Source of the DNA: Guillardia theta CCMP2712
Taxonomy: Eukaryota; Protista; Cryptophyta
Reading direction: 5' to 3'
Length of the DNA: 64,000 nt
NCBI RefSeq assembly: GCF_000315625.1
Contig: NW_005434673.1
Coordinates: forward strand, 1,102,302 to 1,166,301
The position numbers were made by a program, and so were the translations under genes. Every line of letters begins with the position of its first letter. Within the stretch, counting starts at the first letter, position 1. The notes beneath the pieces were generated by a model. It worked only from the letters and a program-made list of their open reading frames with translations, was not told where the DNA came from and made no database searches. Positions 28,293 through 52,586 of the stretch are shown here, one piece after another.

Positions 28293-30064
28293 TCTCGTCG
28301 TCGTCGTCGCCACCACCACCACCACCACCACTACCCTTTTCACTACCCTTTTTTCTGACTTTTCGTTTAATTTGTAGAGGATCGATTGCCCTCTCATCGT
28401 TCACAGGTAGAATTGAGAAATGCAGCCACATGTTCTGACTGAGGAGCAGGATTCCTTCTCATGTAACATGAAGTTTCCTTTCTACTTGTCTGGGTCAGTC
28501 CCATGATTGTCGTGCCTGCAGTCAAATCGATCTGAAAGAGAAGTCGCTGCTTCAAATTGCGAAAGTTCAGCTGGAGTCCAGCAAGGTCTTGTTTGATGAA
28601 TGCAAAATTTGGTTGTCATTGTCGTGTTTTCAGCACCTTCAAGACTTTCGGAAGAGAAAGTTTTCATAGCAGAAAGTGGGAAAGGAGTGGACAACCTTGA
28701 AGATTCAAACCGAAACTCGACAGATTCTGCTCGAGGTCGACGGGATAGTGCAAGGTGACAGTACGAGTCATGAGATGGGATCTTATTTGTCTCCTGCTAG
28801 ACGGATTGCAGTGGCAGTTGATGGCTCAACCTCCTCAAAAGTTGCTCTGATGTGGGCCGTCAAGCACTGGTGCTCATCTTGTTACTCAATCCTCCCATCA
28901 TGCTTCTCCTGCTCCTGCTCCTTCCCCTTTGCCGTTTATTTACGGTTTTGCTTCCTCCCCCCTTGCATGTTCTCCAGCTATAGGCAAGGAGACGTCATCC
29001 TTCTCTTCCATTGTCAGCCGCTCCAGTTCAACCCTGGCGCAGGGTATGGAGCAGAGAAAACCTTTCAGGTAATGTCCACGTGGGCAATTCTCAACTTAAT
29101 CCTAAGCGAAAGGCGCTCGAGGACAAAGCAAAATCCACTGGCACGAGCGTGAGCGCTTTGTTGTTGTTACCTCCTTTCTTCTCTTCGACTCCCTACTCCG
29201 ATCGTCTTTCTCGTGCTCGTGCTCTTGCTCCGCGTCATTCCTTACTCCCCTCGCTCCCATGAAGTACAAGTTGGTTCAATCAGTTTTCCAGGTCTTGAAG
29301 CGATTTGCCAAAAGGCTCGAGCAGAAAAAGGTGTCCTGCATTCAAATACTCGCGCGTGGGGACCCAGCAAGCGAGCTTGCCCTGCTTACAGAGAAGAACA
29401 AGTGAGACGTTAAGCAATGAACGGGCGAGGAGATCATGCGAGGTGGCAGGTGCCATCTGCTCGTGATGGGATCACATGGAACTTCTTATGATGAACGAAA
29501 GGATTCAGGTTGATCATTTGACGTTTCACGAAGCATCTCTCTCCGCCCCTCTCTGCAATTTTCTTCCTTGTTTCTACATGTCCTTTCCTATTGTTTTTTC
29601 GTGCTTTCACTTAAGATTGGCACCGACCTGCTTGTCTTCTTATCCCTCTTCTTGTGTCTCATCCTGCTGCAGGTGGCCAGTGGCAGCGACTCGCTTCCTG
29701 GTTCTATCGACCAGCAGACAAGGTTTGGTCTAGACTTCCTTCCTCCTGCCTCTCTTTTGCGGTTCCGTATCCTCCACGCGCTTCTAGGATCCTTCTGCAC
29801 TCCCTCTGCTAATTTTTCTTCGCTTGCGTTGCTACTTCGATTCTATCCACTTGCTTCAAAATCTGATCGGCGGTCATTATGGCCGCGCTTCTTACATGTT
29901 GGCAGACGGCCCCGAACAAGCACGCCGTCGGCAGTGTCTGTAAATTTCTTCCTCCCCCTCTCACTGAACTTGCTAACCTTGCTATAGGTTTCGCTGCAGC
30001 CAGCTCAATGCCAGCTCCTCTTGTGATAGTCGACAGGGTCAAGAGCTCTGAAAGTTACAAGTGA
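27305..30064 (+). CDS. universal stress protein locus with two USP-like N-terminal motifs
   Basis: RRIAIAYDRSEESDQ|ALLWC..DLLVLIHI and RRIAVAVDGSTSSKVALMWA..GDVILLFH..GDPASEL..LLVMGSHG. Unresolved whether this is one two-domain gene or two genes. Confidence 0.8.
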
Positions 30065-30637
30065 TCGATGGATTCATTGGCTATGGCTTGCTGAGTCCAG
30101 CTGAAGTTGAGCAGAAACAGAGTCTGACGTCATTCACTCTTCGACATTGCGGAGCGGCTCCATCTCGTCGCCGTCCCCAGCTGGTCCGTAGGGGCTGACA
30201 GAAGCTGTCAAGCGTGCAACACAAGAGGATGCAGAGTCTACCTAACGACCTGGTGCCCTTTTCCGAAGACCTTCCGGCCTAACCGGTTCAAGCAAGGACG
30301 GCAAGGCGAAATCTACAAGCAGATTCAACCAGGCAGTAAGTTATACAAGCACAGGAACCGCGATCATGAAAAATGTCCAGATTCCGGTCAGTACTCCTCC
30401 GGCAGCGATAGAAAAGATCCTGTCATGTCACAACACAACCACCGACTCCTCCTCGTCCTCCTCGCCCCCTTTCCCCGCACCTCCCTCCACCCAAAGAACC
30501 CACTCTCCTTGCCAGCATTGCTAGCCTCCATCTCCCCCCGTTCCTTCATCTCCCTGTCTCTTTACAAATCGCCTTCCCCCTCGAACAAACCTTCAACCTG
30601 ATCGCTTCTGAGTTGGATTTCGGATCCGAAGATATCC

Positions 30638-31516
30638 ATGACCAACCACCAATCTCAAGTGGACGACGAAACTTCCATGGGAAATGGAGATCGATTTAAG
30701 ATCGCTGATGGAAGCCATGCTTTTGTTTCATTACCTAGTGTTACGATTCCTTCAAGCGAAGTGCCTGCGCCACTTCATCCTTCAAGCCCACCCTTGAGGG
30801 CCTCGAGGTCGACTACAAGCTCGAAACCAGCTTCGGTGACCAAGTTGTCCTCTGATGCAGTCTTGTTGTCTTCGGATGATAAGTTGTCTGTAGAACCAGA
30901 ACAGAGGAAAACTCTCCAGGAAAGTGCGGTCGAAACTGAAACAAACTCCGCCTCCCCGGCAGAGAGCTCTCCGGCGAGCACAATGGAGATCTCTCTCGCA
31001 AAAGACGATGCAAAGCTCAAGACCACTTATGGGCAATCTAAAGATGATCAGCGAATCTCGACAATGCTGAGAAAAGGAAGGTCAAGGTCGGTTCATGACA
31101 GGTCCCTTTCCCCGGATCCGAAGCAATCTTTTTTCATGCGGGCGAGGAGCTTTCCGAAGGAGCATGCTCCTCAAGAACCTCCTATTCCTGCGAGATGTTC
31201 TAGTGCTCCTGAATACGAAGATACTCAAGCGGGGATGTTTTCACAGGGTGAACTCAAATACTACGAAGAGCTTGCTGCTGTCGAGCGCTATTGGAGGGAG
31301 CTGGATCTTCACAATGAAGAACTTTACAGGCAATCTCAAATCTCGTCAGCGGTTGGCTATGACAGCAACCTTTACAAGAATCAGAGACGACATGTGAGCA
31401 GTGGAAACAAGTTTTATGCGCACGTGGTTCGCTCTAGGGCAGCAGCACATGACTTCACCGACCACGACCACCATCATGCAAGTGAGCATGAGCGTAACAG
31501 GAGGCCAACGATATGA
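30638..31516 (+). CDS. hypothetical Ser/Pro-rich disordered protein, single exon
   Basis: 292-aa ATG-initiated ORF with no recognised domain. Confidence 0.55.
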   Translation: MTNHQSQVDDETSMGNGDRFKIADGSHAFVSLPSVTIPSSEVPAPLHPSSPPLRASRSTTSSKPASVTKLSSDAVLLSSDDKLSVEPEQRKTLQESAVETETNSASPAESSPASTMEISLAKDDAKLKTTYGQSKDDQRISTMLRKGRSRSVHDRSLSPDPKQSFFMRARSFPKEHAPQEPPIPARCSSAPEYEDTQAGMFSQGELKYYEELAAVERYWRELDLHNEELYRQSQISSAVGYDSNLYKNQRRHVSSGNKFYAHVVRSRAAAHDFTDHDHHHASEHERNRRPTI

Positions 31517-31979
31517 AGATAGTCTTGACAGATGCTGTCAAGATTACGTTCTTAGTTTTCTATTCTTTCGGCATGCGGACGACCAACTGTATATGATTGT
31601 CCACCTTACCGTTCCCTGCCATTTTGTTATCCCCCATTTCCTTGTGCTATCCTTCATATGGCATTGAAATGCCATTTCACCATGGACTTTCCTTACGTGC
31701 TGAATCGGAATTCATGTACGCTCATGCAAGGAAATAAAGTGAGATTTGCAAGCTTGTACATGTTCACACGCTCCTTTCCTGTTCCAGATCAATCTGCAAC
31801 TTTCTTCAATCAAGTCATTTGACTCGATGGCCCACTCTGCGCAACTCGAGCTCGAGGAGTAATGCTAGTCTACTTCTTGAGACATTTTTCAAATCAACTG
31901 CTTGATTGAGAAGTTTTGATTCAAAGCCTCAATCTCCTTGGGCTCCAGCACAGGCCGGTACAGCCTTGGAGGTTTCCCA

Positions 31980-32330
31980 GGAGGAGCAGGAATACCGTGG
32001 AACACATGACCTTGAGCATCTTCGGCTACCAAATCGCTCTCATGCAGCACTGTTGTTATTTCAGGTCACTACGGCATCTCGATGTGTGGAAGAATGCAAG
32101 AGATCACATGAGTTTCCAATGTAGGGGACATCAGAGATGCTGGTGTCAGCATCACCTGTGAATTCATCAGTGCAATCTTTCAACGCAGCTCGCGGTGCCT
32201 GGCGCTCTAGGCTGCTCCACCCTGTCCTCACGCTCCTCCTCCTGCATGAAGAGTTAAAGACCAAATAAACAGTAGAGCTGGTATCAATCATGCATTCCGA
32301 TCACCTTGTCTGCTACAGGACGAAAATTTG
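31980..32330 (-). mobile_element. possible hAT transposase C-terminal relic
   Basis: Minus-strand fragments CPLHWK (32113-32130) and NSAA*ERFGS (~32025-32056) resemble the hAT dimerisation motifs PLxWWK and SAxSERxFS in order and spacing. Confidence 0.3.
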
Positions 32331-32801
32331 GAGGAGGATGGAGAGCTGGGGGACCCCTGTGATCGATGTTGAAAGGTTTCACCTTTCTCATCGCATTTAC
32401 AGGTCTATTGAAGGTAAACATTGATGAGCAAATATATTTCTCCACAACAAAAGTATTTGCCTAGACGGGGGTGGTGCTGGCTCCTTAGCCTGGAGCGAAC
32501 TACTTTCCTTCTGAGAAGAAAAGGTGAGAAAAACAAGAAAAATCATGTGTAGCAGCAGTAGAGATGGATCGGAACGGGAGAAAGGGAGGCGGTAAAGAAC
32601 AAGTTTATAGAGGAGGAGAGGAGTGACGTGCAGAGATGAACAAGAGGAGGGAGGACAGCAGGAGGAGCTGGAGGAGCTGGAGGAGTTGCAGAACAGCAGG
32701 GACTAACCGTGAGCATTCTTCTCTGTGCTGTGGTGGATCAGGGGAGACTCCCCAATTCTAATAGTATTGTACTTCATATACATATTGAAACTACAATCGA
32801 G

Positions 32802-32846
32802 TAACTCGGCGGCTGGTCAAGGTGTATACCACCCCAACCTTTTTGA
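32802..32846 (+). ncRNA. candidate spliced-leader (SL) RNA gene, copy A
   Basis: TAACTCGGCGGCTGGTCAAG|GTGTATACCACCCCAACCTTTTTGA; 44/45 identical to copies B and C; TATA-like atatacat 18 nt upstream. Confidence 0.7.
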
Positions 32847-33905
32847 CCTCCTGCACTTTTTCTTATCCGGAACCTCGCCAGTTCGAGTCTCCATGATGGC
32901 ATCCCAATCCCAATGTTTAAGTGTTTTAGCAGGGGGGGTAGGGGTCCTTAGCAAATGATCTTCTTGAGCTCGTAATCTGGGGTAGTCACACTAGAATGAT
33001 GAGGGTGGGGTGGTCAACGTCAGTAGGGGGTGGGTGAATGTGTTGAAAAGAGAGGGAGGGTGTAAAGTAATGAGCTGACTTTGCCTAGGAGATAGGGGTG
33101 CTATTCTTCTAGTGAGGTAGGGTTCCTCGGACCTCTGGTGCTAGGATGTAGGAAAATACCTCGAGTAACAGAGGGGGTTGTTGCAATTTTTTCAATACTT
33201 TCAAACTATTTGTTAAAATTTGAACATTAACCTGGTTTCGATTTGAAAAATTCAAGTTCCTGACCCCTCCCCCGCCTTCGCCATGTGCAGGTGCCGCAGC
33301 TTTCGTCAGCCCTTCCACTGCCTCCTCCTCCTCCTCCCCTCTCCCCTCTCCCCTCTCCCCCCACACCCTCCTACTCATCTGTTGATGTAGTCTGCATCCC
33401 CTTGTATCCGTCCTTTCCCTCTACATGTCCTTGCGATGTGCAGCCCCCATAGCTATGCCAGGGATTACCTGAAGCTGATTTGCCGCAACTTGTCTGTCTT
33501 GGTGGGCGTCTTTCGCAAACTGTGCTTTTAGAGCGTTTTTTTGCTCTCGAGAGATTAAAGGAGTTGGGAAACTTTCTTTTCTGTTGTAGTGCTGTGTATT
33601 TAGCCAGAAAACGAATTAGATTTATGCAACAATGATTTGTCGACAACTTAGTAATCTACAAAACCCATGCTCTCACCCGAATTCTCTCATTTTCTTTCGA
33701 CTATGTTTTTCAGCTTTGAGAGAAACAATATATGTACATCATATACTTGACGTTCTTGACTTCTGCTTGCTGCAGGCTTCAAAACATCCGGTCGTTGAGG
33801 ATGGAACTTCTAGAAACTTCAAATTGAGCTGCTCCTCTGCTCATCTTATCACCTATTATTTTTATAACGACAACTCTCACGACTCAAACACCTTTGAGCA
33901 GCTTG

Positions 33906-36900
33906 ATGGACCACAATCCAGCGCATCGAAGCCCTCAGCATGGAGCCATAGCTGCCATGGGCCCGCGCAGAGCCACTAGAGGGAGGAGTTGCAATCGTTT
34001 CAGCAAATTGTACATTATTCCATGCCTTCTGATGGTGAACTTGTTGACCAAGACACTGAGCGAGCACCAGCCAGCATCAACATCTTCCACCATGACAAAA
34101 GCACGAATGGTGCATGATATTCTTGATCACAAGTCCACTAGACGGCGATCGTCTTCACTCAGGGATCATTACTTCGCGAAACCCTACTCTTCAGCCGAGA
34201 ATGACTTTGTCCACCCAAGGCAGAGCATGAGTGTCTATGCATTTGCTAGCGCTCCATATGTCCGGAAGAATGCCGGAGAGGAACTGCATGCTTCAATGTC
34301 TCAAGATGCTTTGCAGCCTGCACAAAGATCGAAGATCTTCAGTAATGGATTTCTTGGTCTTTTCGGGGGCAACAACGATTCGAATGCAAAGCTTGCACCC
34401 GCACCTGCTTCCGACAAATCAGCAGAAGCTCAAGATGAGGACCAACTGACACGTCAGCCTGTACAGGAGGAGAAGATTTCTGAGGACGGTCACGAACAGG
34501 TTGGATTCCCGGATCCCGCAAGCGAAGTTGCCCCAACGAGACCATTGCGAGCATCGCCACCCGAAGACCCGGCGTGCACTCCTGAAGCTATTGTACAGAA
34601 CTTAGATCAGTTGAAGGACGGAGAGCCTGATCTGGACTTCGAACAGAAAGGTGAACTTGATGTTGTTGAGAATCAAGATTATTCAGCAATCCAAAATTTC
34701 CCGCCTGCGGAAGACCTGGTTGCGACTGTACGAGACCTGTGTCAGAATGGCAAGAGCGAAGAAGCCCTTGAGCTCGTGCGAACAGACTTGAGAAACGTGA
34801 GCCAGCCGCAATGCTCTGATATCATGCTTGCCTTCGCTGACATTGGAAGGTCTGATTGTGCACAAGCTGTCCTCCTGCACATGCAAATGTTGGGAGTGGA
34901 GACTGGAGCTTCGCTGGACACTGAGACTTACAACGGGCTCATGCTTGCATACGCTAGAGATGCTGCCACTGCAGATTCCGACGGGCTGGAGCAGACGTTT
35001 GCAGTCCTGGAGCTCATGACGCGTGCACAAGTGGCGCCTGACATAACAACCTATAACCGGCTCATGGAGGCTTGTTCCGCCGCAGCCGAGAGTGTTGACC
35101 CATACCAGAAGGGACTTCAGGTGTTGGACATGATGCGTGAGAGCAAAGTGAAGCCGGACGTGAACACATTCAATACTATGCTGGAAGCCTGCGGTAAGAG
35201 AGGATGGTCAAAGAACACCGGCGATGGATTGAGACTGGGTGCATTGATTATCGAGAAGATGACAGAGTATGAAGTGCCCCCAACGGTAGACACATTCAAC
35301 ATCTTGATGTATGGTATCGCGTGGGCCGCTGGTGCTGGAGATGGTTGGGTTGGCGTAGAGAAAGGACTTGAGTTCTTGGTTCTGATGGCAGAAAAGAAGA
35401 TCATGCCGGATGTAATCACCTTCAACAACCTTATCGCCGCATGTGCTCAAGCTGCCGGGTCTGCAGGTGGCGCGCTAGCGAGGGAGCAAGCCTTCAAGAT
35501 GTTGTGGATCATGCATGAACTAGGATTGGATCCGGACAAGGGGACCTGTGACACTCTGATTGCAACTTGTGCAAAGACAGCAGCAGCAGGTGACATGGAG
35601 GGTATCTACTTTGGTGTGGCCGTTCTTGAGCTTGTCCACGATTGGAAGCTTTCGCCTGATCCGAACATGTACAACGCGCTGTTGAACGTTTGCCTCCGTT
35701 CTGCTGAGGCAGGTGACTTGTCAAGACCTTTCGGGTGGAATCACGTTCGATGGATCGCTCATTTGCTATCCTTGATGAACAGCTTTGGCCCTGACATGAA
35801 TCCTCAGATCAGGATGATCTTCGACAACATGACTAGTCTCTGTGTGAGAAAAGCTGCAGCCTTGGAGAAGCGGAGCAAGCGACAAGGCATCAACGAAGCC
35901 AAGGACGAAGATGGAGAGAGATTCAGTGCAGGAGGCATCAGGCTGGAGGCTGTGGGAGACGATGATCATGTTTTCTGGTACTCGAGAGATCTGTGGCCAC
36001 GAAAATCAGCACAGTCGTCAGAGAGCGGGCTTGTTCATGACAAAGCAGCGGGGGAAACTAACTTTGAGAAGCTGAAGCTTCTAGCCACCGACCAGATCAA
36101 AAATCTTCGCTCCCGGTACCTCGAGCAGGCCATGTCTCCAGCTCCGGCCGATCGGCATACTGCTGTTACAGATGAGGGAGGAGAGGCTCATGTGAAAGAT
36201 CTCGAGATCTGTTTGGAGACGAATGAGGGGGAGGAACAACAAATGTTTGATGACATTCCTATGTTGCCTGGTGAAGATGATGGAGATGTTGAGGAGCAAA
36301 GGGATGACGGAGATGGCATTACCGATAAGCAGAACGTTGATATTGTTTACGAGGAACAGGAGGAGGAAGCTCAAGAAAGAAACGTGGAACATCCTGAAGA
36401 GATTTGTACAGCAGCTGAGGTAGAGACACCAAATGGTCATATGCGGCAGGAATATCAAGAATCAGCTGAGATAGAATCGGAGGGCATGCGACAGGAGCAG
36501 AATGTTAGGGATGAGAGAGCTGAAAGGGATTTAACGGAGGAAATTGAGAGTCAGAAAGTAGAGGTAAGGCTCAGACATCCTTCCCCTGATTGCGACGAGG
36601 CGAATCATAAGGGGCAGGAGGAGGAGGAGAAATGTACAGAATATCACGAGGGAGGGGAGGGAGCTTTGGATCGTCGTTTCGCTCCTCATAAAGTTCACGG
36701 GCAAGAGGCGGAAGCGAAGCCGAACAGCCATGCTAGACCTGCTGGGACCCACGAGTTGGGGGAGGGGTCAGACGGAGTCTCTCTCTGCACTCCTTGGGCA
36801 GAGGAAATCGACGACTCCTGGGAGGAGCGCGGTCAGCATGATGTGGAGCAGCAGGCGGAGACAAGACACTCGAGACACCAAGGTAAGGACCAGCCTTGTT

Positions 36901-37645
36901 GATTTCTGCTCCTTCATCCTCATCCTCTCTCTGTTTGTTTCTTGTTTCCTCGATGACCTTTTTTGCTTCAAGGTCACACCTCTTACACATTCGACTTGCG
37001 TTCGTCTCGAGCGGATAGAAGCAGCAACACGCGCAAGTCGCATGGGAAGTGCTCCTCAGCTTCAGTCGCCATCTCTCCTCGCCCGCCAGCTGTTGATCCT
37101 CTTCACTTCCCCCCGCGCTCTCCTCGCGGCTTGCAGGAGTACATAGCACAGATGATCGACTTCCAGCGGCATGGACGGGGAAAGAACTCAAAGAGCTTCG
37201 CTGACAATCGCCGGACGAGGGAGGAAATCAGGCGGATGGATGTGGGCCAGGTGAGGGAGAGGAGGAAGACGGGGAGGAGGGACCTGACGGAGGAGCAGGT
37301 ATGTAACTGGCTCAAGAGCGTGGGGCTGGCCGATTGTGCCGAGTACTTCCAAGAGGCCTGCGTAGATGGAGCAGGCCTTGTTCAGCTGAGAGAGCTGCTG
37401 GCGAGGGAGGTAACTCACCGAGACGATTGATGGGGTGGAAGCTGATGGGGCTGCAGGTTCAGACGTTCTACGACGCTGTCGAGAAGAGGTTGGGAGTGAA
37501 CAAGTTCGGACTGGTGAATGCCTTCTCCTCCTCTTGCTTCTGCTTGCCCTCTCCCAGCGCGACACCCTCTCTTTCTTGGTCTCCCCTCCTCCTGACAGGG
37601 TTGTTGTAGGTTCTTCGCCTTGCGGATTCGCTGCAGTGTCTGTGA
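33906..37645 (+). CDS. pentatricopeptide-repeat protein with acidic linker and C-terminal SAM domain
   Basis: Tandem PD..T(Y/F)N.L..AC repeats; E-rich region; LTEEQVCNWLKSVGLADCAEYFQEACVDGAGLVQL (SAM); spliced end FGL|VLRLADSLQCL*. Confidence 0.85.
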
Positions 37646-38649
37646 GGCCCCTGAAAGATTTGCCGCATGTGGACGGATGGGAGGGTCGACGTAGCTCTTG
37701 TAATTTCATGTAACCTTGTACAGTAGCACGAGTAGTTAAGGAAGATACTTCTTGCATGTCACAGTTCAAGTTCTTGCCAAACTGGCAGTCAGCCGATTCA
37801 GGCTTCATGCAAATTGGCAACGTCGCCGTTCCGAAGTTTGTGGCCCAGGAGTCGACTGGGCACCCGCTGAGCCCTCACTGGCAGTGACTGGCCGCAGCGA
37901 GTTAACAGTCCGACCTTACCCGGCATAGACTCGGATCTACCCGGGCCCAGATTACTCATTGTCTCACGAGCCTCGGATTCAACGGTCGGATAGGGCCATC
38001 CCGGGCGCTTCCGGCGACCGCCGGGGCTGTCCGGTGTCAACCGGATGCGGCCGGCTGGGCAACGCCAGGCCCGGGCCGAAGTCGCGGCGGCGTCCAGGGC
38101 GGCGTCGAGTGATGAACGCGGTTGGGGATGAGGGCCCGGGATCAACGGCTGGAGAAAAAAAAGGGATGAAAGATCGTTGAGATATGGCGACCGACGTGCG
38201 ACGGCGAGGAGAGGATAGGAGAGGGAGGAGAGAGAGGAGAGAGAGGAGAGGGAGGAAAGGAAGGGGAGAGCTGGGAGAAGGCAGAGGAAGGAGGAACAAG
38301 GATGGAACCTGAGGGAGAGAGGAAGTACTGGCAAGTGTCACAGCCTTAGGGCTCGATGGGGCACAGCATGCTGGTGGGGCACGGTGATGAGGACGAGGGA
38401 GGGCGAAGAGACACGACCAAGAAGAGAGCGATAGGCAGGAGGAGGGAGAACATAGCGAGGAAGGGAACGAGTTGAGGGGGGACGACTGATATTTGACGAA
38501 AATCGGTTGTGTAGGAAACAAAGTGAAAAAGGATAGCTGGGGGTAGCAAAGAAAACACGAACAAGAGGCTGTCACCACCAACACATCAGCTCAGAGATTG
38601 CTGCTTCTCCTTCATCGCTCAGCCTCGCGTCTAGTCAGCTGCACCCGCC

Positions 38650-40208
38650 ATGACGAGCAATCAGAATTCTTTCGGCTTGTTCGGGTGATGGTTGACTTTT
38701 GTACCCCCGCGTCTGAGTCTCAGCGCAGCTACACGCCCTCCATCTACCAAGGGGATCCCTACGGGACCTCGGAGAAGGCGCGAGGGGACGCGAGGTACAA
38801 AGGGAAGCAGTTTAAGGTCGGCGGGTACAAGAAGGGCAAGACACCTGACGTCTACTTCGACCCTGCCGTCGCCTCGAGCGTGTACATTGGAGCCAAGTAC
38901 ACGACCCTCTTCGACCTTGACAGAAAGTGAGCACAGACTGCTGCTGCTGCTGCTGATGATGATGATGAGGAGGAGGAGGAGGAGGAGGAGGAGGAGGAGG
39001 AGGAGGAGGAGGAGGAGGAGGAGGAGGAGGAGGAGGACAACTTTGTCCAAATGCTTTAATTGGTGTTGTTGTTCAGACTTGTTATTTTTATGGTAGTGGT
39101 TGTAATTAGTCCAATAGATATCACAAGGAGAAGAAGCAAAGGCAGATAGTCTCTGCTCCCTTCAAGCCCTCCACTCCCAGGTAGTCATCATTCTCTTCCT
39201 TTCCCCTTCTTCCCGTCTACCAATCTCTCCACACTCGTTTCTTCCTCTCGATCCTCGTGCCCTTCTTCTCCTAGTGTATTCATCACGCGCAACTTGGCAG
39301 CCAGCACATGGAGGGCAAGGGCGGGTACTTCGGGACCTTCGGCAAGTTCGAGAACATCAAAACTTCCGACGAGTACGACAAACGGCCGGTGAGAAGGAGA
39401 GAAGGTGAGGGGAGGAGGGGGCCCAAGGCTTTGCGGCAGGTGAAGAAAGGAGAGACGAGGGAGTTCGAGCCGAGAAACTTCTTGACGAGTCCATCCAAGA
39501 AAGGACATCAGGGGCTACTCAGCTGCAAGTGAGTCGTCTTCCTCCTTGCTCCTCCCCCCTCCCCCTCCCCGCTTCCGATCTCGTTCCTTCTTTCTTGCTT
39601 CTCTTCCTCACGGTCATATCCTGCAGGAATGGCGTCCAGGGGGTTGCCAACGAATATCACTACGAGTCATCTCCCCCTCCAACTAGAGAGAAGAAGGAGC
39701 ACGTGAGAAACAGCGAACCAACAACCCACTACCTCCTTTACTCACAACCTTCAGGTCACTCCATTCAAACCCCCGTCGCCTGCTAGGAAGGGTCTCTTCA
39801 CTCAGGTATCTCACCCTCTACCCCCGGCCCCTCCTCCTGATCGTCTCCTCCCCTCAGGACTGTAAAGTCACTTTCTCCGACTTTAAGTACGGAATTCAAG
39901 GGCCTAGAGATGTAAGCTTCCTCCTGCTCCTCTTCTCTCTCTCTGGCGGCTCACCAACGCTCCTCGCTCACATGCTCGTTGCATCAGCGCAAGCGCAATG
40001 CAGCAGGCGAAGGTCTCAAGCCATGGTTCCCCACCAGCGTCTCCAAGTCCATTCGAGGTTCTTCCTCGTTCTCGTCCTCGCCGATCCCTCGCCTCTTCCT
40101 GTGCTCTTCCTCTTCTTCCTCGTCCTTGTTCTCCTTCAACACTCTCCTGATATGCTTGCAGGGCCTTTGGGTCGCATCTTCGCCACCATCAATCCCCCTC
40201 CTGAGTAG
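38650..40208 (+). CDS. CFAP96: UPF0602 / C4orf47 / CFAP96-like flagellar protein, multi-exon
   Basis: Spliced MTSNQNSFGLFG|YTPSIYQGDPY...KQF...KKG...DVYFD; FKPS.P; GYFGTF; PRNFLTSPSKKG. Confidence 0.7.
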
Positions 40209-40299
40209 CTCCTCACCTCATCCAATTGCTTGTCACCTCTCCCCCCCCCCAGGTACCTGCCGCAGGGAGGCGCCGAAAAGAAGGCGAGCAAGGAGGAAG

Positions 40300-41759
40300 A
40301 CATCAAGAGTAAGCTCTCCCCTGCTGCCTCTGCCTGCTCCCGCTTTTCACACTTTCTGTAGAAATTGGCCCAGCATTCCGACCGAGCAGCTGCCCGAAGT
40401 CCATGCGCAGGTACTCCAGTGTAGAGAAGGAGGGAGGAGGGAGGGGAGAGGGAGAAAGTCTGACATCTCTTTCAAGCGTTTCCATCGTCAACATGCCGAG
40501 GAACATCAATTCTGCCTTCTAGCGTTCCTCGTTTTCCCCTGGCTGTTCGACTCAATACGACATGCTCAAAGCTCGCGATCAACCACATCCCGTGCGTCTT
40601 CCAGCTCCAGCTCCCTGTACACGAGCTGGATGAGTGGGAGGAGAGGGAAGGAAGCACACTTAGCGGAGGGGGGGGGGGGGGGGGGGGGGGCGATGGCGGG
40701 GAGCAGGGGAGGGACAAGAGGAGGGAGGGGCCAACAGGCTCGACAGGAAGCTGATGTACCAGCATAGAGGGCGGAGCTGCTGCCATCTGTCGCGATCGAA
40801 GTACTCTGATCCTGTTGGAGGTCAGCTGGGCCTTGTAACGCGCTCCTCACCCATCCACTGCAGCAACCTTTCTCGCTCCTGCAGGTTCCTGGGCAAGGGC
40901 TTGGTGAAGGCGAAGCCCTGCATGGCACATGAGGGAGGATGATCAAGGAAGGAGCAGAGAGAGCTGCTACATGCTCGATGCGGAAGCCCAAGTCTGGTTG
41001 GATTACGCAGTGTCTTCTCCCTGGTATGGATCAGCAACGGAGAGCAGGAGCACGTTCTCGAACCTCCTACTCGCATGGAGGCGACAGCATCCTCTATGCC
41101 GGGGCAGATGTAAGGGTCCTTCACATCTCTAGTCAGCCTGTCCTTGCTTGTCGCCACTGCTGCACCTGGTACAAGACGAACTCCAACGGCTCGTCGTCCG
41201 GCCATACGACGCTGCCGCCTTTCTTCAAGTCGTCGCCTTTCCAGGGCCTTCCTGTCCTGAGGGCGGTGAGTCAGCAGGAGCCCGAGACTGCAACCTAGCT
41301 CACTCTTGATCACTGAGATGCTCGTAGCTCTTGGCAACATTCCATCGCAATCTTATGAGCTTAGCAAGTTTGTCAACCATCGAGGTTCAAACTTACTCGC
41401 TTTACCTGCCCCTCTCTCGGACGCTCTCCATCCCCTGGCCAGACATCTTGATAGGCCACTTGATAGATGCTGGTGGCATTCATGGGGAGAGGAGGAACTA
41501 GTTGCATCTCCGACTCTCTCTCGTCATGGTACTCAGAGTCAGGTTCGCTGTTCGGCTCCACCTTGAACGTTCGCCGTAACACCCGTTCTTCCTCTTTATA
41601 CTTCTTAAAGATGTCAAGCTCCGAGGAATCGCCTCCTCGGATACGCATACTCGCATCTCTCAATGAGCACAGGAAGCATCTTGTCTCCTCGGCCCGACAG
41701 ACTTGAGATCTCAGCATTGCGAATCCAAGAAGGGTGACCAGCAGCGCAATCGTCGTCAT
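40300..41759 (-). CDS. signal-peptide protein with an RIRGG motif and a possible FKBP-like segment
   Basis: MTTIALLVTLLGFAM signal peptide and SMRIRGG. ICPGIEDAVASMRVGGSR resembles FKBP vI.G.eeav.gMkvGekR. 3' end uncertain. Confidence 0.5.
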
Positions 41760-41907
41760 GTCGAGGAAAGGAGAAGGCGTCGGTGTTTTGGATCAGCCAC
41801 CAACAAGATGGTATCGTCTTGTTGTTATCTGCATCTCATTCCTCCTCCTCCTCGCCTCGTTGCCCTCGCCATGCACCCGACGCATTGTTGGGATTTCCAT
41901 CTTCTCG

Positions 41908-41996
41908 TACAGCCCCTCATACAGCCCCTCATACAGCCCCTCATACAGCCCCTCATACAGCCCCTCATACAGCCCCTCATACAGCCCCTCATACAG
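41908..41996. repeat. (TACAGCCCCTCA)x7 12-mer tandem repeat
   Basis: 7 perfect units plus a partial unit. Confidence 0.95.
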
Positions 41997-43285
41997 GCGG
42001 CCCAATAATAGTCATCGCCAGAGTCATCCCCCTCATTTTTTTGGCCCCCATCCCCCATCACTTGCTCCGGAAATAGCGTTGAAGGACCAGCATGTTCGAG
42101 CTGTTGGACGTATGCGGCATCCCGGGGATTGAGAAATGCATCCAGACGTCGCAGAGAGTGAGCGGCCCGCACCTCTCATGAACACATCCTCCTTTAAACT
42201 CCCTCTTTCCTGCTCCTCTCTTCTCCCTCTTCCCTCCTCACCTTCATCCCCATTATTCCTCCTCCCCTTCTTCTTGTTTCCTTCTCTGCTTCCCAGGAAG
42301 TGGAAGTGGCTATTGTGTTGAGCAAGTAAGCAGCTAGGAAAGAGAGGGCATCGGACAAGGGTCTGAGAATAGAAGAAGTAGATTATGAACGTCGCGCAAT
42401 GTATGTATGGACAATGAAGCGTTGGTCATCTTGTTCGTGAAAGGTCATCTTGTTCGTGAAAGATGGGTTGTTTGTGAAATATCATCTGCAGTCCTCCTAG
42501 CTAGGTTGATTCCCAGCCGCTTTGTTGCTTGAAACAACGACTTAACAACGACTTCTGGAATGTCGAATACTGTGTAGATCGTCTGTGAAGCAATTGCAGA
42601 GAAAAGTTTATTTTGGAATCGAGATGAGTGAGTGTTGGGAATAAGTGATAGCCCCTCGAGAATAGAGTTGTGTGGCTTCCCTGATGTGAATGTGGGAGTT
42701 GTTGGGTGTGCAGAAAGGGTGCCAAGTAGGAGATGGCTCGCAACGAGGACTGATTGTTTTCTCAGGTGGTTGACGGTCATTATCCTCATGTGATGCCTCA
42801 CTCCAGCAACTTGAAGTTCTGGGAGCAGGGGCTCACGTCAGACATTGGCAAGAGTTTCCTGATCGGTTCCTCTTCTTTCTGTGGGATGGGGGTTGGTGTG
42901 ACAGATAGTGCAGGTCACAAGAGGTTGGGTAACTCGACAGAGATGCAGTGGGAAGGACTTTCCCGCAGTGTAGGAAGCTCAGGGTAAGAGGAGGAGCGTT
43001 TTTCGAGGCTCTTGATCTTGACCTTTTCTTTCAACAGCACAAAGTCTGCCCTGTACAAGCAGATGTACGCTGAGGGACAGCGGGCACCATGGGGATCTTT
43101 TTAAGGTTGAGAATGGTGCGAAGGAAGGTTACGGATGTACAGACATTGAGAGCTCTAAGAATGAATCGTGTTACATTGCCCCTTGTTGTACAAAGAAATT
43201 TCATTCAACAGGTGATCCAGGACAGAGAGGAAAGAACGTTGGTGAGTACGGAAGGGTGATGGAAAGAGGGATGCCGACAATATTT

Positions 43286-44785
43286 TCAATCTTCTTGACA
43301 GCAATCTTCACGGAGCAGGAGGCATTCTTGCCATGAAAAAATTCGCCAAGTCCAGAAGCATTTCCCTGGTTTTACGAATGCAGCCGGTTCACCCTTGCGG
43401 TCTGATAGCGCCCAATATTCCATCACGCAGCATCGTAGACAATGTCGGCAGCATGGAGTGCATCCGAAGTAGAGAGGCGCGAAGCAAAAATAATTGAGAA
43501 GAAATCTGATGGCGATGCCGAACAGGAAATACGTCAGATAGTGGATGGCCAGTAGCAGCCAGTAGTCGTACTGCGTGACTGAGCATCGGCATTGTTGGAA
43601 CTGAGGCAGCAGCCTTAAAGGTCGGGGCAGAGAGCACATGAACTGGTTCAGATTCTGACAAGACTGATCTACAAATGATGTTTGATTGCTTGAAGCATCA
43701 AATTGCAGAACCTTGCACGAAGAGCCAATGGCCGAGAAGGAAGTAAGATTTGAGCTTGTGTTTGCCAACCATAGTGAGGTCGAATTATACAGACGCATAG
43801 TCTGCATTATCTCCGTTTCATTCGATTCCTCCCCCAAGACAAGAAGTTTTCCTCCAATATTTTCACAGAAGCTATATGCGTCCAGGTTTGACTTGGACTC
43901 ACATATGAACTGCAAGGTTTCTCGAGACTCCATTGCAGCTGTTTCTTTCCTTGTAGCCCGCAAGGATGAAGTTTGATTGGTGTCAACTTGTTTGGTGCTG
44001 TTGATGGTGGCATTCACTGCAACATTGAAAACGATGCCTGCTGGTAGAAGTTGATGAGAGGACACAGCATGATTGATCGAAGCATTCTGAAAGACGAACG
44101 ACTGGCAAGTTTTGAGATTGTTGATCATGAAGTAACAGAAGTACAAGGAAGCAAGAGATAGGAGTAGAGCAAACAATTTCAAAATGTATCGCATGAAATT
44201 CAAGCAGCATCGTGCATTGTGCAAGCGGTCACAAAAGCACTGACAACAGAAGGAATCCTCCTTGTTAAAAATGGTTCCAATAAAACTGCACTTGACGCAG
44301 TAGGAAAACAAAATGGATTGCAGCAGCAAGTTGAGAATAATCCCCGAGACCGTCTTTATCCAGAATGATGATGCCGAAAATACATGCATGATGAGGGAGG
44401 TGCTTAGCAAGGTCACAAGCAACACGTTCAACATGACCATAGTCCTCTGGGTTCTGTTGTATCGTTTACAATCTTCAGGCTGAGCAAAGAAGGGAGAAAG
44501 TTCGTCACTCTCCTCAATGTGAAGACGCATTTTGTTTCGACAAGTCCAGGGACAACAAAACTTCAGGATGAACTCACAGCATGTAAGATCTGGTCGTTCA
44601 GCTTGTGCAGGCTCGATCTCTGACATGGCTTCTCTGAAGTTATAAGGATCATAATAGAGGTTCCTTATCGGTGAAGCCTGAGTGTCGGCATATACCAAAT
44701 CATCTTCCAGAGTCAAGAAGTTATGCAGGTTGGGTGGTGCTCTGATGCAGACATCTCCATCTTCCTCCTCGTGTTGCACAGCCAT
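43286..44785 (-). CDS. intronless multi-pass membrane protein with a C-type lectin-like domain
   Basis: About 500-aa ORF with 4 hydrophobic segments. AYSFCENIGGKLLVL..LWL..C..DQSC..FMC (CTLD) lies in an N-glycosylation-rich loop. Cys-rich juxtamembrane clusters. Confidence 0.8.
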   Translation of the reverse strand: MAVQHEEEDGDVCIRAPPNLHNFLTLEDDLVYADTQASPIRNLYYDPYNFREAMSEIEPAQAERPDLTCCEFILKFCCPWTCRNKMRLHIEESDELSPFFAQPEDCKRYNRTQRTMVMLNVLLVTLLSTSLIMHVFSASSFWIKTVSGIILNLLLQSILFSYCVKCSFIGTIFNKEDSFCCQCFCDRLHNARCCLNFMRYILKLFALLLSLASLYFCYFMINNLKTCQSFVFQNASINHAVSSHQLLPAGIVFNVAVNATINSTKQVDTNQTSSLRATRKETAAMESRETLQFICESKSNLDAYSFCENIGGKLLVLGEESNETEIMQTMRLYNSTSLWLANTSSNLTSFSAIGSSCKVLQFDASSNQTSFVDQSCQNLNQFMCSLPRPLRLLPQFQQCRCSVTQYDYWLLLAIHYLTYFLFGIAIRFLLNYFCFAPLYFGCTPCCRHCLRCCVMEYWALSDRKGEPAAFVKPGKCFWTWRIFSWQECLLLREDCCQED

Positions 44786-45417
44786 TGTATTGTGCGTAGA
44801 TCCACTCAGGAGTGGTATGAAAGGAACAGGTGCTTGAGGTTCTACTGCTTGTAGGCAGCAGATCAAGTTCTATATTCGTAGACTTTCTTTCAGATCAAAA
44901 GTGAGCTTCTCCTCTGCTCTCTCCTCTTCTTCCACCGCCTTTCCGCATGCCTCGAAGCTCCAGGTTGAGCTCTATGCTCGTCCCCACCCCTTTCCCCTCC
45001 TATCTCACCCCTACCACTGACCTGATTTACCACCCACCCATTCAAAACAATCTCGCACAGTACCCCCACCCCCTGATATACGAGTAAAACATTCCCCACC
45101 CAAGATAGCTTTCTGACTTACAGAGATGTTCCACCACCCCTCCTTCGTAGTCTGTAGATCCCTTTTGAAGAGGTGGGACCTCTTATCTTTAACGGATCCA
45201 CTAAAATGGAGCAAGGAAAAGACCTGGAACCATTCTTATGACCCCTACCTTACTTCTTCCCCAGCTTTAACAGGCATATTGACGGGTCGTGTACCCCTTG
45301 CTGTAGGACGTGATTAAAAGTTTAAAAATCATATTTCAATGCCTATTCGTGCCGAAGGGTCAAGGATGCGACAAGGAATCGATCGGCGGAGTTTATGAGC
45401 ACAACCACGTAGAACTA

Positions 45418-45462
45418 TCAAAAAGGTTGGGGTGATATACACCTTGACCAGCCGCCGAGTTA
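45418..45462 (-). ncRNA. candidate SL RNA gene, copy C
   Basis: Exact reverse complement of 45807-45851. TATA-like ttatatacat (45481-45490, minus strand) lies 18 nt upstream. Confidence 0.7.
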
Positions 45463-45806
45463 CCAACCACACCAATCTTGATGTATATAAACTGGCCCTA
45501 CTAGAGTAGGGCCACGGTACACGTTGGCACGGAGGTGTGTCCGTTGACCTTCAAAGCCCGTTTGCCCCGTCACCCTCCGTGACGACCGTCGGACCGTGAC
45601 AGCGCGGCACCGTACGGTCGGCTAACCGTTCAGTAGTGTCATGTCACGGCGGATCCTCAGCCTGGCACTGCCGGGACGGCCCGGGTTCCGGCCGGCCCGC
45701 CGGATCGGATGTGTAGGGCCGGGCCACTGCCGCTGGCAGGCCCTGAGGGGGCCGGGTTAGGGGTGGTTGGATAGTGGTATATAAACATCAGTGTTCTTCG
45801 TGTCAA

Positions 45807-45851
45807 TAACTCGGCGGCTGGTCAAGGTGTATATCACCCCAACCTTTTTGA
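45807..45851 (+). ncRNA. candidate SL RNA gene, copy B
   Basis: TAACTCGGCGGCTGGTCAAG|GTGTATATCACCCCAACCTTTTTGA; tatataaacat ends 18 nt upstream. Confidence 0.7.
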
Positions 45852-46125
45852 AGATCAGATTATCGCTTGTTTTGCTCGTAAAGTCCACCGGTCGATTCCG
45901 ACTCTGCAAGCACCGCTGCCGCATGAGGCATTATTGTCATCCCCCAGGAAGCTCAATTGTTCAGCTCACCTTTCTTTTCTCCCTACCGTTGCTTATCGCC
46001 CCTTCCCTTCTTTTGTTGCTGTGATGCATCCGATCGGCTGCCTTACCTGTCCATCGGTGCTTCCACCCCAAACAGGTCGGCCCCTTCCCCTTTTGATGTC
46101 AGTATGGTTCTGTTCTTCTGATCCT

Positions 46126-47330
46126 TCATCCTGTTGAAACCTCTGGGGTCGTTAGCCCCTTCCTCCTTGCAAACCATAACATTTGTTGCACTTCCACAAG
46201 TTGGACAATTACTTTGACCGCGGCTGAATCGATCGTCTCCTCATCCTTCTTTAGCTTCCTCCAGTTTTCACGCCATTCGAGTTCCATGATAGCGCACTTG
46301 ATCCCCGCGATAAATGTAGCTTGAACACCTTCCGCCTCTGGCCTTACCCTTCTCATCCCCTCCAGCAGGCCTGCATACTTGACTTCTTTCTCCACACATT
46401 TCTCCCGCAAGCATTGCAGACTGCCCATGCCTTCGCTGCCACCATATTCAGATGTTCGTGCTATCTCCACAAGCACGATGCGATTTCTCTCTTGAAGTAG
46501 CATACGCCATCTGTGATGACCCTTGCTGGAGTTGTTGCATCTCAAGTTCTGCCATTGAGTTGACTGGTGTTTGCCACCAGCTCGAACACATGGAGTTGAC
46601 TGGTGTTGTGTTCGAGCTGGTGGCAAACACCAGGCAACTCCGTGGCAGAACTTAAGATGTTTCCTCCAACTCTTCTGTCACTCTTCTGCTTTGATGGCTT
46701 CCATAACTGTGTTGTGCCAACTTGGTCATGAGCTCAAAGCTCTTGCAGGCGAGCTGAACATGCCCCCAAGTCTTCTCTCGCCAGGACACCATGCACAGTA
46801 CGGTGAGTTACTTTTCTTCCATCGGCACAATTTCTTCTTGGTCGGTGCAGATAGGGTGATGGCTTGAATTGCAGTGCGTAGGACCGCTCCCTTGCATCTC
46901 TTCAGCGCCACTCCCCGGAGCTTTCGCCCAACCTGCCCTTCGAGGAGGAAGTTTTCCGTCAATGTGAGAGGGCCGGGTCCGAGCTTCTCCTCCAAAGTTT
47001 TGTCTCGAGTGATTCGATCCCAGATCTTCAGCCTGTCGATATCTGGTTGAGATGCCTCCTCTTCTTCGATTGCAAAGCTGATATCTTGATCAATGTAGGC
47101 TCGCTCCCACGGAGAAGAGAAGACGCTTTTGTCTGTTCGCGCCATCTCCTTGGCTTCCTGGAGTATACCATGTTCGTCAGTAAGCTGTACTCCAACAAGT
47201 TTGCCTGATGATCGAGCTCGGTCTAACTCCTCCTTCAGGCGGCTCCCGAGGATTGATTAGCTCGTCCTCATAACACATGGTATCATGCCGTAGGGTATTG
47301 GTGATGAAACGAAGGATCTTTCACCGATAC
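46126..47330 (-). mobile_element. 5'-truncated non-LTR retrotransposon relic (CCHC finger + restriction-like endonuclease)
   Basis: PTKKKLCRWKKSNSPYCAWCPGE, then after a frameshift TWGHVQLAC...AHNTV (zinc knuckle); TDGV..RIVLVEIART..EKEVKYAGL (PD..E..KxxKY RLE pattern); stops and frameshifts throughout. Confidence 0.75.
46538..46659. repeat. fold-back inverted repeat with 53-bp arms and a 16-nt loop
   Basis: 46538-46590 versus the reverse complement of 46607-46659: 49/53 identical. Confidence 0.95.
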
Positions 47331-47364
47331 CTACTACGGTGATTGGCGATGTGATCGACAGATG

Positions 47365-47758
47365 TAGTTCCCGAGACAACCACTGTCCCCTACAGCAGCT
47401 TGACTACCAGACTCAGACTGTGCAGGAGCCCCGCACATACATGGAGTCTGTTTAGGTCCCCAAGACCGTGATGGAGGACCATGACATCGTCTACAAGACC
47501 CCCAAGACCCAGACCAAGATTGTTCTCCGCACCGTGTTGGTTCCTGTCACCGTCATGGTCGACCAGGTCATCCAGGGGACCGAGACGGCCCCCAAGATCG
47601 TGATGGAGGACCGTGAAATCGAGGTCCCCCACCAGGTGTATGAGACTGTCACCCGCACCGTTCAGCGCCCCAAGACTATCATGGAGGAGAAGGTGATTGC
47701 CGTTCAGGAGCCCACGAATTGTCCAGGTTCCCAAGCAGATCCCCGTGACCCAGACTGA
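47365..47758 (+). pseudogene. fragment of an articulin/alveolin-like Val/Pro/Glu/Lys-repeat cytoskeletal gene
   Basis: PKIVMEDREIEVPHQVYETVTRTVQRPKTIMEEKVIAVQEP repeats with GC3-rich codons; frame broken at both ends. Confidence 0.55.
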
Positions 47759-48031
47759 CCGCCTCTGCGCCTCTCATGAGCACCGCTTGTGCACCGGGTA
47801 GATTTTACGATAGCATTCCAAGCGGCAACGTTGCTTCTCAGAACGAGGGACAAGTTGAAATAAACCATTGCCTTTGTCTAAACCCTAAACCTGATTGCTG
47901 GTACTGTATCATCGCTAAGAGCACAACATTCTACACAATTAGGCTACTCCTGTCGCCCAGGTCCAGAAGCATTTTTCGTCAACACGCAAGTGATAATCCT
48001 TTTGTCCGGCATGATGCCACCTTCGATCAGG

Positions 48032-49120
48032 CTAAGCTGCCTGATACCAGAGTTTTGGGCGCTGGATGAGGCCGCGGCAAAAAACAGTCATGGGTTTGCC
48101 AACATACCCAACTGTCCACAAGAAATCAGCATTGAGTGGCACGCTCGGACCTTCATGAATGATGGCTTGCGGCCACATTGTGTCATTGTAGGATCTTGTC
48201 GTCCATCCTTCTGGAGCTGTGTCATTCGCAAAATGTTTGCATTTCCAATTAGCCGGGCTTGTTGGATAACCTCCGAAGATTCCGATCAATCCTGATAGTA
48301 CTCCAAAATCCATTGCTTTTACGGCAATATGGACAGTACTCAATGATATTACAGGTACCGAATATTTGTACACAATTTGCCAATCCTTACCCGACCCAAT
48401 GTACCTCCCATCAACGTAAAGGTCAAAGGCATTGTCCACCGTCATACTGATGTCCATCCTAAACTGTGAAACATTCAATTCAATCTGCTCTGATGAAACT
48501 AGCTCCGGTTGGTTGAATGCAATTTTCGAATCCGTACTCAGCCATAGATTGCTTGATTTTGGGGGAGGCGTGAAAAGCCTCAAATTCGAATTTTCTCCCC
48601 ACGGATGCCAAGAACGTGTCTGTTCGTCAAAAACCCAACAAAAGAACCTGTCTGTGATGTCTAGAGCACAAGGATGATCTGATATGCACATCCATACCTC
48701 GAAACGATTGAGGATGGTGAACATTCCCAGCCCACCAGTACGAAAGGCAACTTTACCTGAACTTGCATTTGCGAAGAGATCATCCCATGTTTGGTATGGG
48801 TTGATGCAATATCTGTACCTGATCCCACTTTCCCTGAGCATGACATCAAGTCCATCCACCCCATCATATGGTGCAGTTTGACAGGAAGGAGAAAAGTACC
48901 AAAACGGAGCACTAGATGCTATGAACGAAATATTATTGGTTCCAGCAGTAACGTTCGTTCCTTGGATGAATGGGGGCGAAGTAGCTTGCACCGATGGTGC
49001 AATCAGTGTCAAGCACAGCAGGAAGACTTGCAATACTCGGTACCTGAGCATAACGCTCGCAAGAAGTGGGTCACTAGAGCGTCTCATCGTATTGCCTCCT
49101 TGCTCTCCGTTGCAGGACAC
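48032..49120 (-). CDS. intronless secreted protein with a C-terminal galactose-binding-like (lectin) domain
   Basis: Signal peptide ending VQA; VDNAFDLYVDGRYIG..W..HIAVKAMD..GLIG..NWKC..PEGW..YNDTMWPQA. Confidence 0.7.
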   Translation of the reverse strand: MSCNGEQGGNTMRRSSDPLLASVMLRYRVLQVFLLCLTLIAPSVQATSPPFIQGTNVTAGTNNISFIASSAPFWYFSPSCQTAPYDGVDGLDVMLRESGIRYRYCINPYQTWDDLFANASSGKVAFRTGGLGMFTILNRFEVWMCISDHPCALDITDRFFCWVFDEQTRSWHPWGENSNLRLFTPPPKSSNLWLSTDSKIAFNQPELVSSEQIELNVSQFRMDISMTVDNAFDLYVDGRYIGSGKDWQIVYKYSVPVISLSTVHIAVKAMDFGVLSGLIGIFGGYPTSPANWKCKHFANDTAPEGWTTRSYNDTMWPQAIIHEGPSVPLNADFLWTVGYVGKPMTVFCRGLIQRPKLWYQAA

Positions 49121-49207
49121 GCTTTTCGCCGCCTCAGTCCAGCAGGGCAGGCGCCGTGATGCTGAGGCGGGTTGGTACCTGCCTGCAACTCAAATGACGC
49201 ACTCACC

Positions 49208-51348: not shown

Positions 51349-52586
51349 TTCACATCACATGAGGAAAATACGCTGAAGCAGATGGAGGAAGTTGCTGAGA
51401 TGGCAAAGGCGAGGAGGAGGAGGAGGAGGAGGAGGAGGAGGAGGAGGAGGAGGAGGAGGAGGAGGAGGAGGAGGATAGTCTGTAAGACGGGGAGGAGGAT
51501 GTATAGGGGTGGGAGTAGCGGCCATGCCAGGAGTAAAGCTGTATACGGCGGTAGATTGGTAGGGGGCCCATAGCTTATAGGACCTGATGCCCTAGCATTC
51601 CGGACCCCCTAAAAACAACGTAAGTGCCACGTAGAGCGAGGCCAACGGGGGCCGCCAGTGATTTGCTGTCAACTTAGTTGAAAGTTCTCCAGTTCACGGC
51701 ACCTCTCAGTGACTGACCGGTCGCCGGGACCGTGACTCAGTGACTCGGACTAGTACTGATCATTGACTTAACTTTGAGTAAAGAAGTTTGGGGGACCGGA
51801 CAGCAGTCGGCAGGATGAGGGAAAAAATATACTCAAAGTGAGCATGTCGCATGTTTTTGACCGTCGACAATGATGGAACACCGGACCTGGCTCGGAGCAT
51901 CGGAGCAAAAGTTCCGAGCCGGGCATCGTAATGCAAATGCACAGCACGTCCCGCGCGGGGCGGCCAAAGGCCTTTCTTCCCATCATCGCCAGCACTAATG
52001 GACTCTTGCAGGATGATGCGTTGCGCTTTCTGTTGTGGCTGGCGGATGGCTCGGCGAACAAGGAAACGGCAGCGCTCCGACTTGCAAACTTGAAACGCAT
52101 CCGGTCCAGAATCTTTCGTCAGCTTTGAAGGTCTCCCTGTCCTTCGCTGCCAGGAATTGTCCTGCGCGTAGTTACTATTGAAGTGAAGGTATCAGTTAAG
52201 TTTGGGGGACAGCAGTTGGCAGGTTTCGGTTTGGTTCTCGCTGTCTTTTCTCTTGCCTCGCCGTCATGCCATGCATGATGGCCTGTGCGACGTGGCAGTG
52301 TCAGGATCAAGCCTCCTCGATGCTCCTGCCGGCAGACTGTCCTCGTACACCGCGGCCTGGGTGGCGAGTCACCGTGTCACTGACTGATCAGTTTTTAACT
52401 TAATTTTGAGTAAAGATTGAACTTCATCAAGTTACTACTGAGTTAAGTTTTCGGGCGGCGTTAGTAATGTAACACGCAAGAAGTTCGTTGAGAACGGCTG
52501 ACAGTTGCCGCAAGTTTCGAGTCACCGCACCGTTCAAGCCAAGCCACGTCCGATCATCCCCCAGCGGCGATTCAACTCAGAGAAAC

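Follow-up and report, generated by a model that had tools for sequence, protein, structure and literature searches.

Spliced leader RNA genes in cryptomonads and other lineages

The mRNAs of the cryptomonads Guillardia theta and Hanusia phi carry a 17-nucleotide (nt) spliced leader (SL), which was detected in 868,236 of 183 million reads (Roy 2017, PMC5619915). About 97% of the mapped leader sites were located at AG acceptors, with 7,101 acceptor sites and 20.9% of genes involved, and 20 genomic copies of the SL RNA gene were described, in which the leader is followed by a GT donor, similarity persists until 23 nt beyond the splice site, and the end is U-rich and Sm-like (PMC5619915). Sixteen of these copies form loose clusters of 2–5 genes over 1–21 kb, often on both strands, and a linkage to operons was not found in G. 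theta (PMC5619915). Here, we analyzed 64,000 nt of the genome of G. theta CCMP2712 (assembly GCF_000315625.1, contig NW_005434673.1, positions 1,102,302 to 1,166,301 of the forward strand; this whole stretch is referred to as the window), which contains three copies of a 45-nt unit. The original prediction, made from the letters of the DNA alone, had read them as SL RNA genes. That reading was right and had already been published in 2017: as judged by sequence, each unit is a genomic copy of the SL RNA gene already known from cryptomonads.

Other SL systems allow a comparison of size and promoter type. According to the accessible part of the source, the SL RNA of Ciona intestinalis is 46 nt long, with a leader of 16 nt and an Sm motif (PMC7986045). 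It resembles the cryptomonad genes in its very short RNA, short leader, and Sm motif, but its sequence is unrelated, it is encoded by at least 670 gene copies, and it is linked to operons. The predicted "unusually short" SL RNA is thus a fair description for which Ciona nevertheless sets a precedent. Dinoflagellate SL RNAs are likewise short (50–60 nt); however, their Sm motif resides in the exon and not in the intron, and their TBP-like factor has a low affinity to TATA (accessible part of PMC5029490). Kinetoplastid SL RNA genes share the feature of an own polymerase II promoter per gene (accessible part of PMC1888695), but differ by a 39-nt leader, by their tandem arrangement, and by a promoter that has been called TATA-less (accessible part of PMC5029490).

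The units (Table 1) agree at all 45 positions except position 28, which is C in copy 1 and T in copies 2 and 3; the original prediction had likewise noted a single variant base. When the whole window was searched with a 23-nt pattern allowing up to three mismatches, only these three matches were obtained, a result reached by none of 100 shuffles. Unit positions 4–20 are the exact published 17-nt leader and are immediately followed by the GT donor (3/3 copies each), and the conserved block stops 23 nt past this GT, in a T5 tract and a subsequent GA. The window copies therefore share with the genes of Roy 2017 (PMC5619915) the leader, the donor, a conserved intron part of equal length, the U-rich Sm-like end, a total of about 20 copies, and the loose two-strand arrangement, and we found no difference in substance; a TATA box or a stem is not part of the published text. 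Copies 2 and 3 lie back to back at a distance of 344 nt, and the trio, with members on either strand, extends across 13,050 nt, which makes it a cluster of the published type. The idea that the genes are scattered through the genome therefore has to be toned down, as most copies are clustered. Furthermore, in the DNA run X1 the common core unitig reached a depth of 1187.5 versus 58.7–73.4 in unique flanks, corresponding to roughly 16–20 copies, with depth being a rough guide.

The window is eukaryotic, and short GT-AG introns were seen in RNA-like contigs. Among the 120 matches listed for its Cdc14-like protein, all legible organism names were cryptophyte (Rhodomonas, Guillardia theta paralogues, Hemiselmis, Baffinella, and others). 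Two of five window proteins were found by exact look-up, in entries without names. The sequence of the 17-mer occurred in a single paper of the literature searched. Short leader patterns were also matched elsewhere, i.e., at 21 loci in metagenome contigs (18-nt pattern) and two in viral contigs (17-nt pattern); as neither the intron part of the SL gene nor a TATA box was present next to any of these 23 matches, we consider them to be due to chance.

Table 1. Positions of the SL RNA gene copies, their parts, and associated elements in the window.
Feature	Position	Strand	Basis or remark
Copy 1, SL RNA gene, conserved 45-nt block, C at position 28	32802..32846	+	Sequence; leader as in Roy 2017 (PMC5619915)
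Copy 1, weak TATA-like box, TTCATATA	32773..32780	+	−29..−22 from the unit's first base; putative promoter role
Copy 1, leader exon	32803..32821	+	Published 17-mer at 32805–32821; with an RNA start at A 32803, probably 19 nt
Copy 1, GT splice donor	32822..32823	+	Sequence; Roy 2017 (PMC5619915)
Copy 1, predicted Sm-binding U tract	32836..32846	+	Sequence; Sm motif predicted by Roy (PMC5619915)
Copy 2, SL RNA gene	45807..45851	+	Leader 45808–45826, donor 45827–45828, U tract 45841–45851
Copy 2, TATA box, TATATAAA	45778..45785	+	−29..−22
Copy 2, downstream 31-nt segment common to copy 3	45869..45899	+	Duplication relic or 3'-end signal
Copy 3, SL RNA gene	45418..45462	−	Leader 45443–45461, donor 45441–45442, U tract 45418–45428
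Copy 3, TATA box, TTTATATA in sense direction	45484..45491	−	−29..−22; reverse complement of the box of copy 2
Copy 3, matching downstream 31-nt segment	45375..45405	−	Sequence comparison

The TATA box and its fixed distance

A near-consensus TATA octamer begins 29 nt before the unit in all three window copies, with that of copy 1 being a weak TATA. Across the 64 kb of the window, the hexamer TATATA is confined to two places, one being the box of copy 2 and the other that of copy 3. ATA[AT]ACAT is found three times in the window, always at the units, and ACAT ends 18 nt upstream of every one of them, as originally claimed. To these we added further upstream flanks, which were read from loose ends of assembled contigs and counted by hand among the rows listed. 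Five long upstream rows represented four distinct flanks (X1 at 45806, X1 at 45466, X4 at 45463, and X1 together with X2 at 32796). In all four, the first letter of TATATATA is located at −29 relative to the unit, which, given the rarity of TATATA in the window, is not plausibly due to chance. ACAT is present in none of the four, so that ACAT is specific to the window and the general feature consists of a TATA octamer at −29..−22 plus a spacer of fixed length. Another upstream element at a fixed distance was not found in common among the three window copies. The TATA box is thus likely each copy's own promoter, and the proposal of individually promoted genes has gained support from the four additional flanks.

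By comparison of their letters, the spacers appear to be conserved in length and not in sequence: the three 18-nt stretches were said to differ and indeed share only 4, 3, and 7 of 18 positions in pairwise comparisons. A variable sequence of uniform length immediately before an invariant block is what would be expected of an 18-nt guide fused to a scaffold, in the manner of RNA-guided nucleases, and this had been offered as a less likely alternative to SL RNA. We give it practically no credence. The invariant block is the leader already described (PMC5619915), an RNA starting 18 nt upstream would leave only some 3 nt between its 5' end and the TATA box, and RNA-like contigs begin at unit position 2, past the spacer. 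The spacers have no match elsewhere in the window with up to three mismatches, and their last 6 nt are common to some copies (unitigs 32796–32827 with depth 230 and 45801–45835 with depth 125), as duplication would give.

The units could also be transposon ends or inert relics of retro-copied leaders. About 20 dispersed copies would fit such an origin, as would the large imperfect inverted repeat formed by copies 2 and 3. Still, this origin is very improbable. The unit lacks a terminal inverted repeat, and target-site duplications, which would have spoken for transposon termini, did not exceed background at the three copies (longest upstream/downstream repeats of 4, 5, and 7 nt; background mode 5). 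A leader copied back from mRNA would have lost the donor and the intron part, which all copies have kept, and the TATA box has been retained at a fixed distance while the spacer diverged. In addition, the leader is present at thousands of mRNA acceptor sites (PMC5619915), although single copies, e.g., copy 1, could still be silent.

The start of the RNA and the polymerase

Regarding the 5' end, similarity among the genomic copies was said to start abruptly at the 17-mer (Roy 2017, PMC5619915). The high-depth core unitig, however, has the T of unit position 1 as its first base, 3 nt upstream of the published 17-nt leader, and the RNA may begin 2 nt upstream of it. Four contigs of the RNA-like run X4 first match at unit position 2 (A; 32803), preceded by short stretches (median 16 letters) that are absent from the window copies and may be library adapter. 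X4 rows at 45461 and 45808 likewise begin at position 2, and are probably the same contigs. These contig ends hint at an RNA start at this A, in which case the leader would measure 19 nt and the RNA 44 nt or more. In a raw RNA run (X15, of which about 6% was read), only a handful of reads covered the units, which is not enough to position an end. A TATA box at −30 combined with a T-A initiator is textbook promoter geometry, and a start at the A would place the box at −30 and make the T-A the initiator.

Taken as a whole, we infer individual transcription from the TATA box, probably by polymerase II. TBP would bind the octamer at −29..−22, and the A of unit position 2 would probably be the first transcribed base, the preceding conserved T acting as the initiator pyrimidine. 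The product would be an RNA of roughly 44 nt or more, the 3' U tract of which is predicted to be bound by Sm proteins (Roy 2017, PMC5619915). The spliceosome would then cut at the G|GT donor and splice the leader onto pre-mRNAs at AG acceptors close to their 5' ends, a step that was demonstrated from RNA-seq (Roy 2017, PMC5619915).

The same SL RNA genes could alternatively be transcribed in a U6-like manner by polymerase III, from the TATA box and with the T5 tract as terminator and Sm site; only the polymerase would differ. The U6-type layout consists of a TATA box around −30 plus a terminal T5 run, and the units conform to it. Conservation ceases 2 nt past the T run in the three-copy comparison, and the lack of a further common upstream element among the window copies would also fit. 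On the other hand, the leader has to supply a cap that permits translation, and such a cap is normally acquired in polymerase II transcription. The T run is moreover followed by conserved purines, which are required of an Sm site but not of a terminator. A further copy (X4 at 45422) seemingly has only three Ts, and kinetoplastid SL RNA is made by polymerase II (accessible part of PMC1888695). We therefore regard transcription by polymerase III as unlikely. Should it nonetheless apply, the SL RNA would measure roughly 42 nt, shorter than the 46-nt SL RNA of Ciona, and the leader would be capped outside polymerase II transcription. A stripped-down U6-like promoter of this kind, made up of nothing but a TATA box that serves polymerase III in both orientations, and combined with a T5 run as both Sm site and terminator, is unlikely.

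The best explanation overall, which we hold with high confidence, is that the units are copies of the published SL RNA gene, each of them likely being a separate transcription unit that is driven by a TATA box some 30 nt upstream and donates its leader to mRNAs. Several observations weigh against it or against parts of it. The three further conserved bases ahead of the 17-mer are contrary to the published text (PMC5619915). The RNA nature of X4 is a guess, and since this run also contains DNA-like contigs reaching upstream and contigs cannot fix the end of an RNA, support for the start site is weak. Upstream flanks were seen for seven of about 20 copies. A junction of leader and mRNA was not seen among the loose-end rows listed for 42600–49150 and 28360–32836, so that trans-splicing rests on Roy 2017 (PMC5619915). 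The U tract is preceded by CC and not by the usual purine-A (usual consensus AT{4,6}G). Finally, the GGTG-CACC hairpin that was predicted to contain the donor, with a stem of 4 bp, does appear in the minimum-energy fold with the variable position 28 within its loop, but its stability is not above that of shuffles (z-values of 0.70 and −0.14).

Within this stem, at window position 45837 (unit position 31), 3 of 15 DNA reads of run X16 carried T instead of C, probably derived from another copy; the G-C pair of the stem would become G-U, and pairing would be kept.

Flanking features and meaning for cryptomonads

The units had been described as having unrelated flanks. This applies to the spacers; copies 2 and 3, however, have a 31-nt downstream segment in common (26/31 identical; score 37 versus a maximum of 21 in 200 shuffles). 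The 344 nt between these copies (45463–45806) have a GC content of 62% and are CCGG-rich, similar to islands at 37.8–38.3, 49.4–49.9, and 53.6–54.5 kb, and a perfect 10-bp hairpin (45493–45514) adjoins the TATA box of copy 3. About 140 nt past copy 2, a spliced transcript with four GT..AG introns begins in X4 contigs (45988–49073, + strand). It is antisense to the open reading frames (ORFs) 46126–47256 and 48032–49189, both without a Pfam match, and is either an independent RNA or the result of read-through at the SL gene. Another spliced transcript, on the minus strand (about 31956–32500; CT..AC gaps on the + strand), is arranged back to back with copy 1.

Further upstream on the + strand, a 292-codon ORF without a Pfam match (30638–31516) shares an X4 contig with the preceding universal-stress-protein-like gene, possibly indicating overlapping or dicistronic transcription, which goes beyond what a contig shows. 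The 5' part of the latter gene likely includes a 13-nt micro-exon between CAG and GT (28450–28462, + strand), the letters of which sit between two exons in RNA-like contigs of X4 and X7. A 742-nt inverted repeat (1063–1804 and 3269–4010; 99.5% identical) copies the 3' part of a kelch-repeat gene and is either a recent inverted duplication or an assembly artefact. An Rfam scan of the window (E up to 1) returned nine matches, none on the units and none reaching the gathering score, and ARAGORN reported no genes in the window. GAG/CTC triplet and similar microsatellites are numerous (38967–39037, 51411–51475, 61916–62220, and others) and account for spurious microRNA matches in the Rfam scan.

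As the system was described in 2017, our finding is a rediscovery. The position of the TATA box and the block start 3 nt earlier are the only additions to the published system, and they are small and testable. The words "TATA" and "stem" do not occur in the text of Roy 2017 (PMC5619915), whose Figure 1B may show upstream bases. The literature searched, which omits most subscription journals, yielded no report of a TATA promoter for these genes and none on a small nuclear RNA promoter of G. theta with a TATA box. A leader of 19 rather than 17 nt, if true, would matter to leader-primed cDNA work. A TATA-driven SL gene, as opposed to the TATA-less promoter of kinetoplastids, adds a minor data point on the repeated origins of SL RNA. 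Together, the fixed TATA box and the likely start at A would amount to a compact promoter from which small RNAs could be expressed in cryptomonads.

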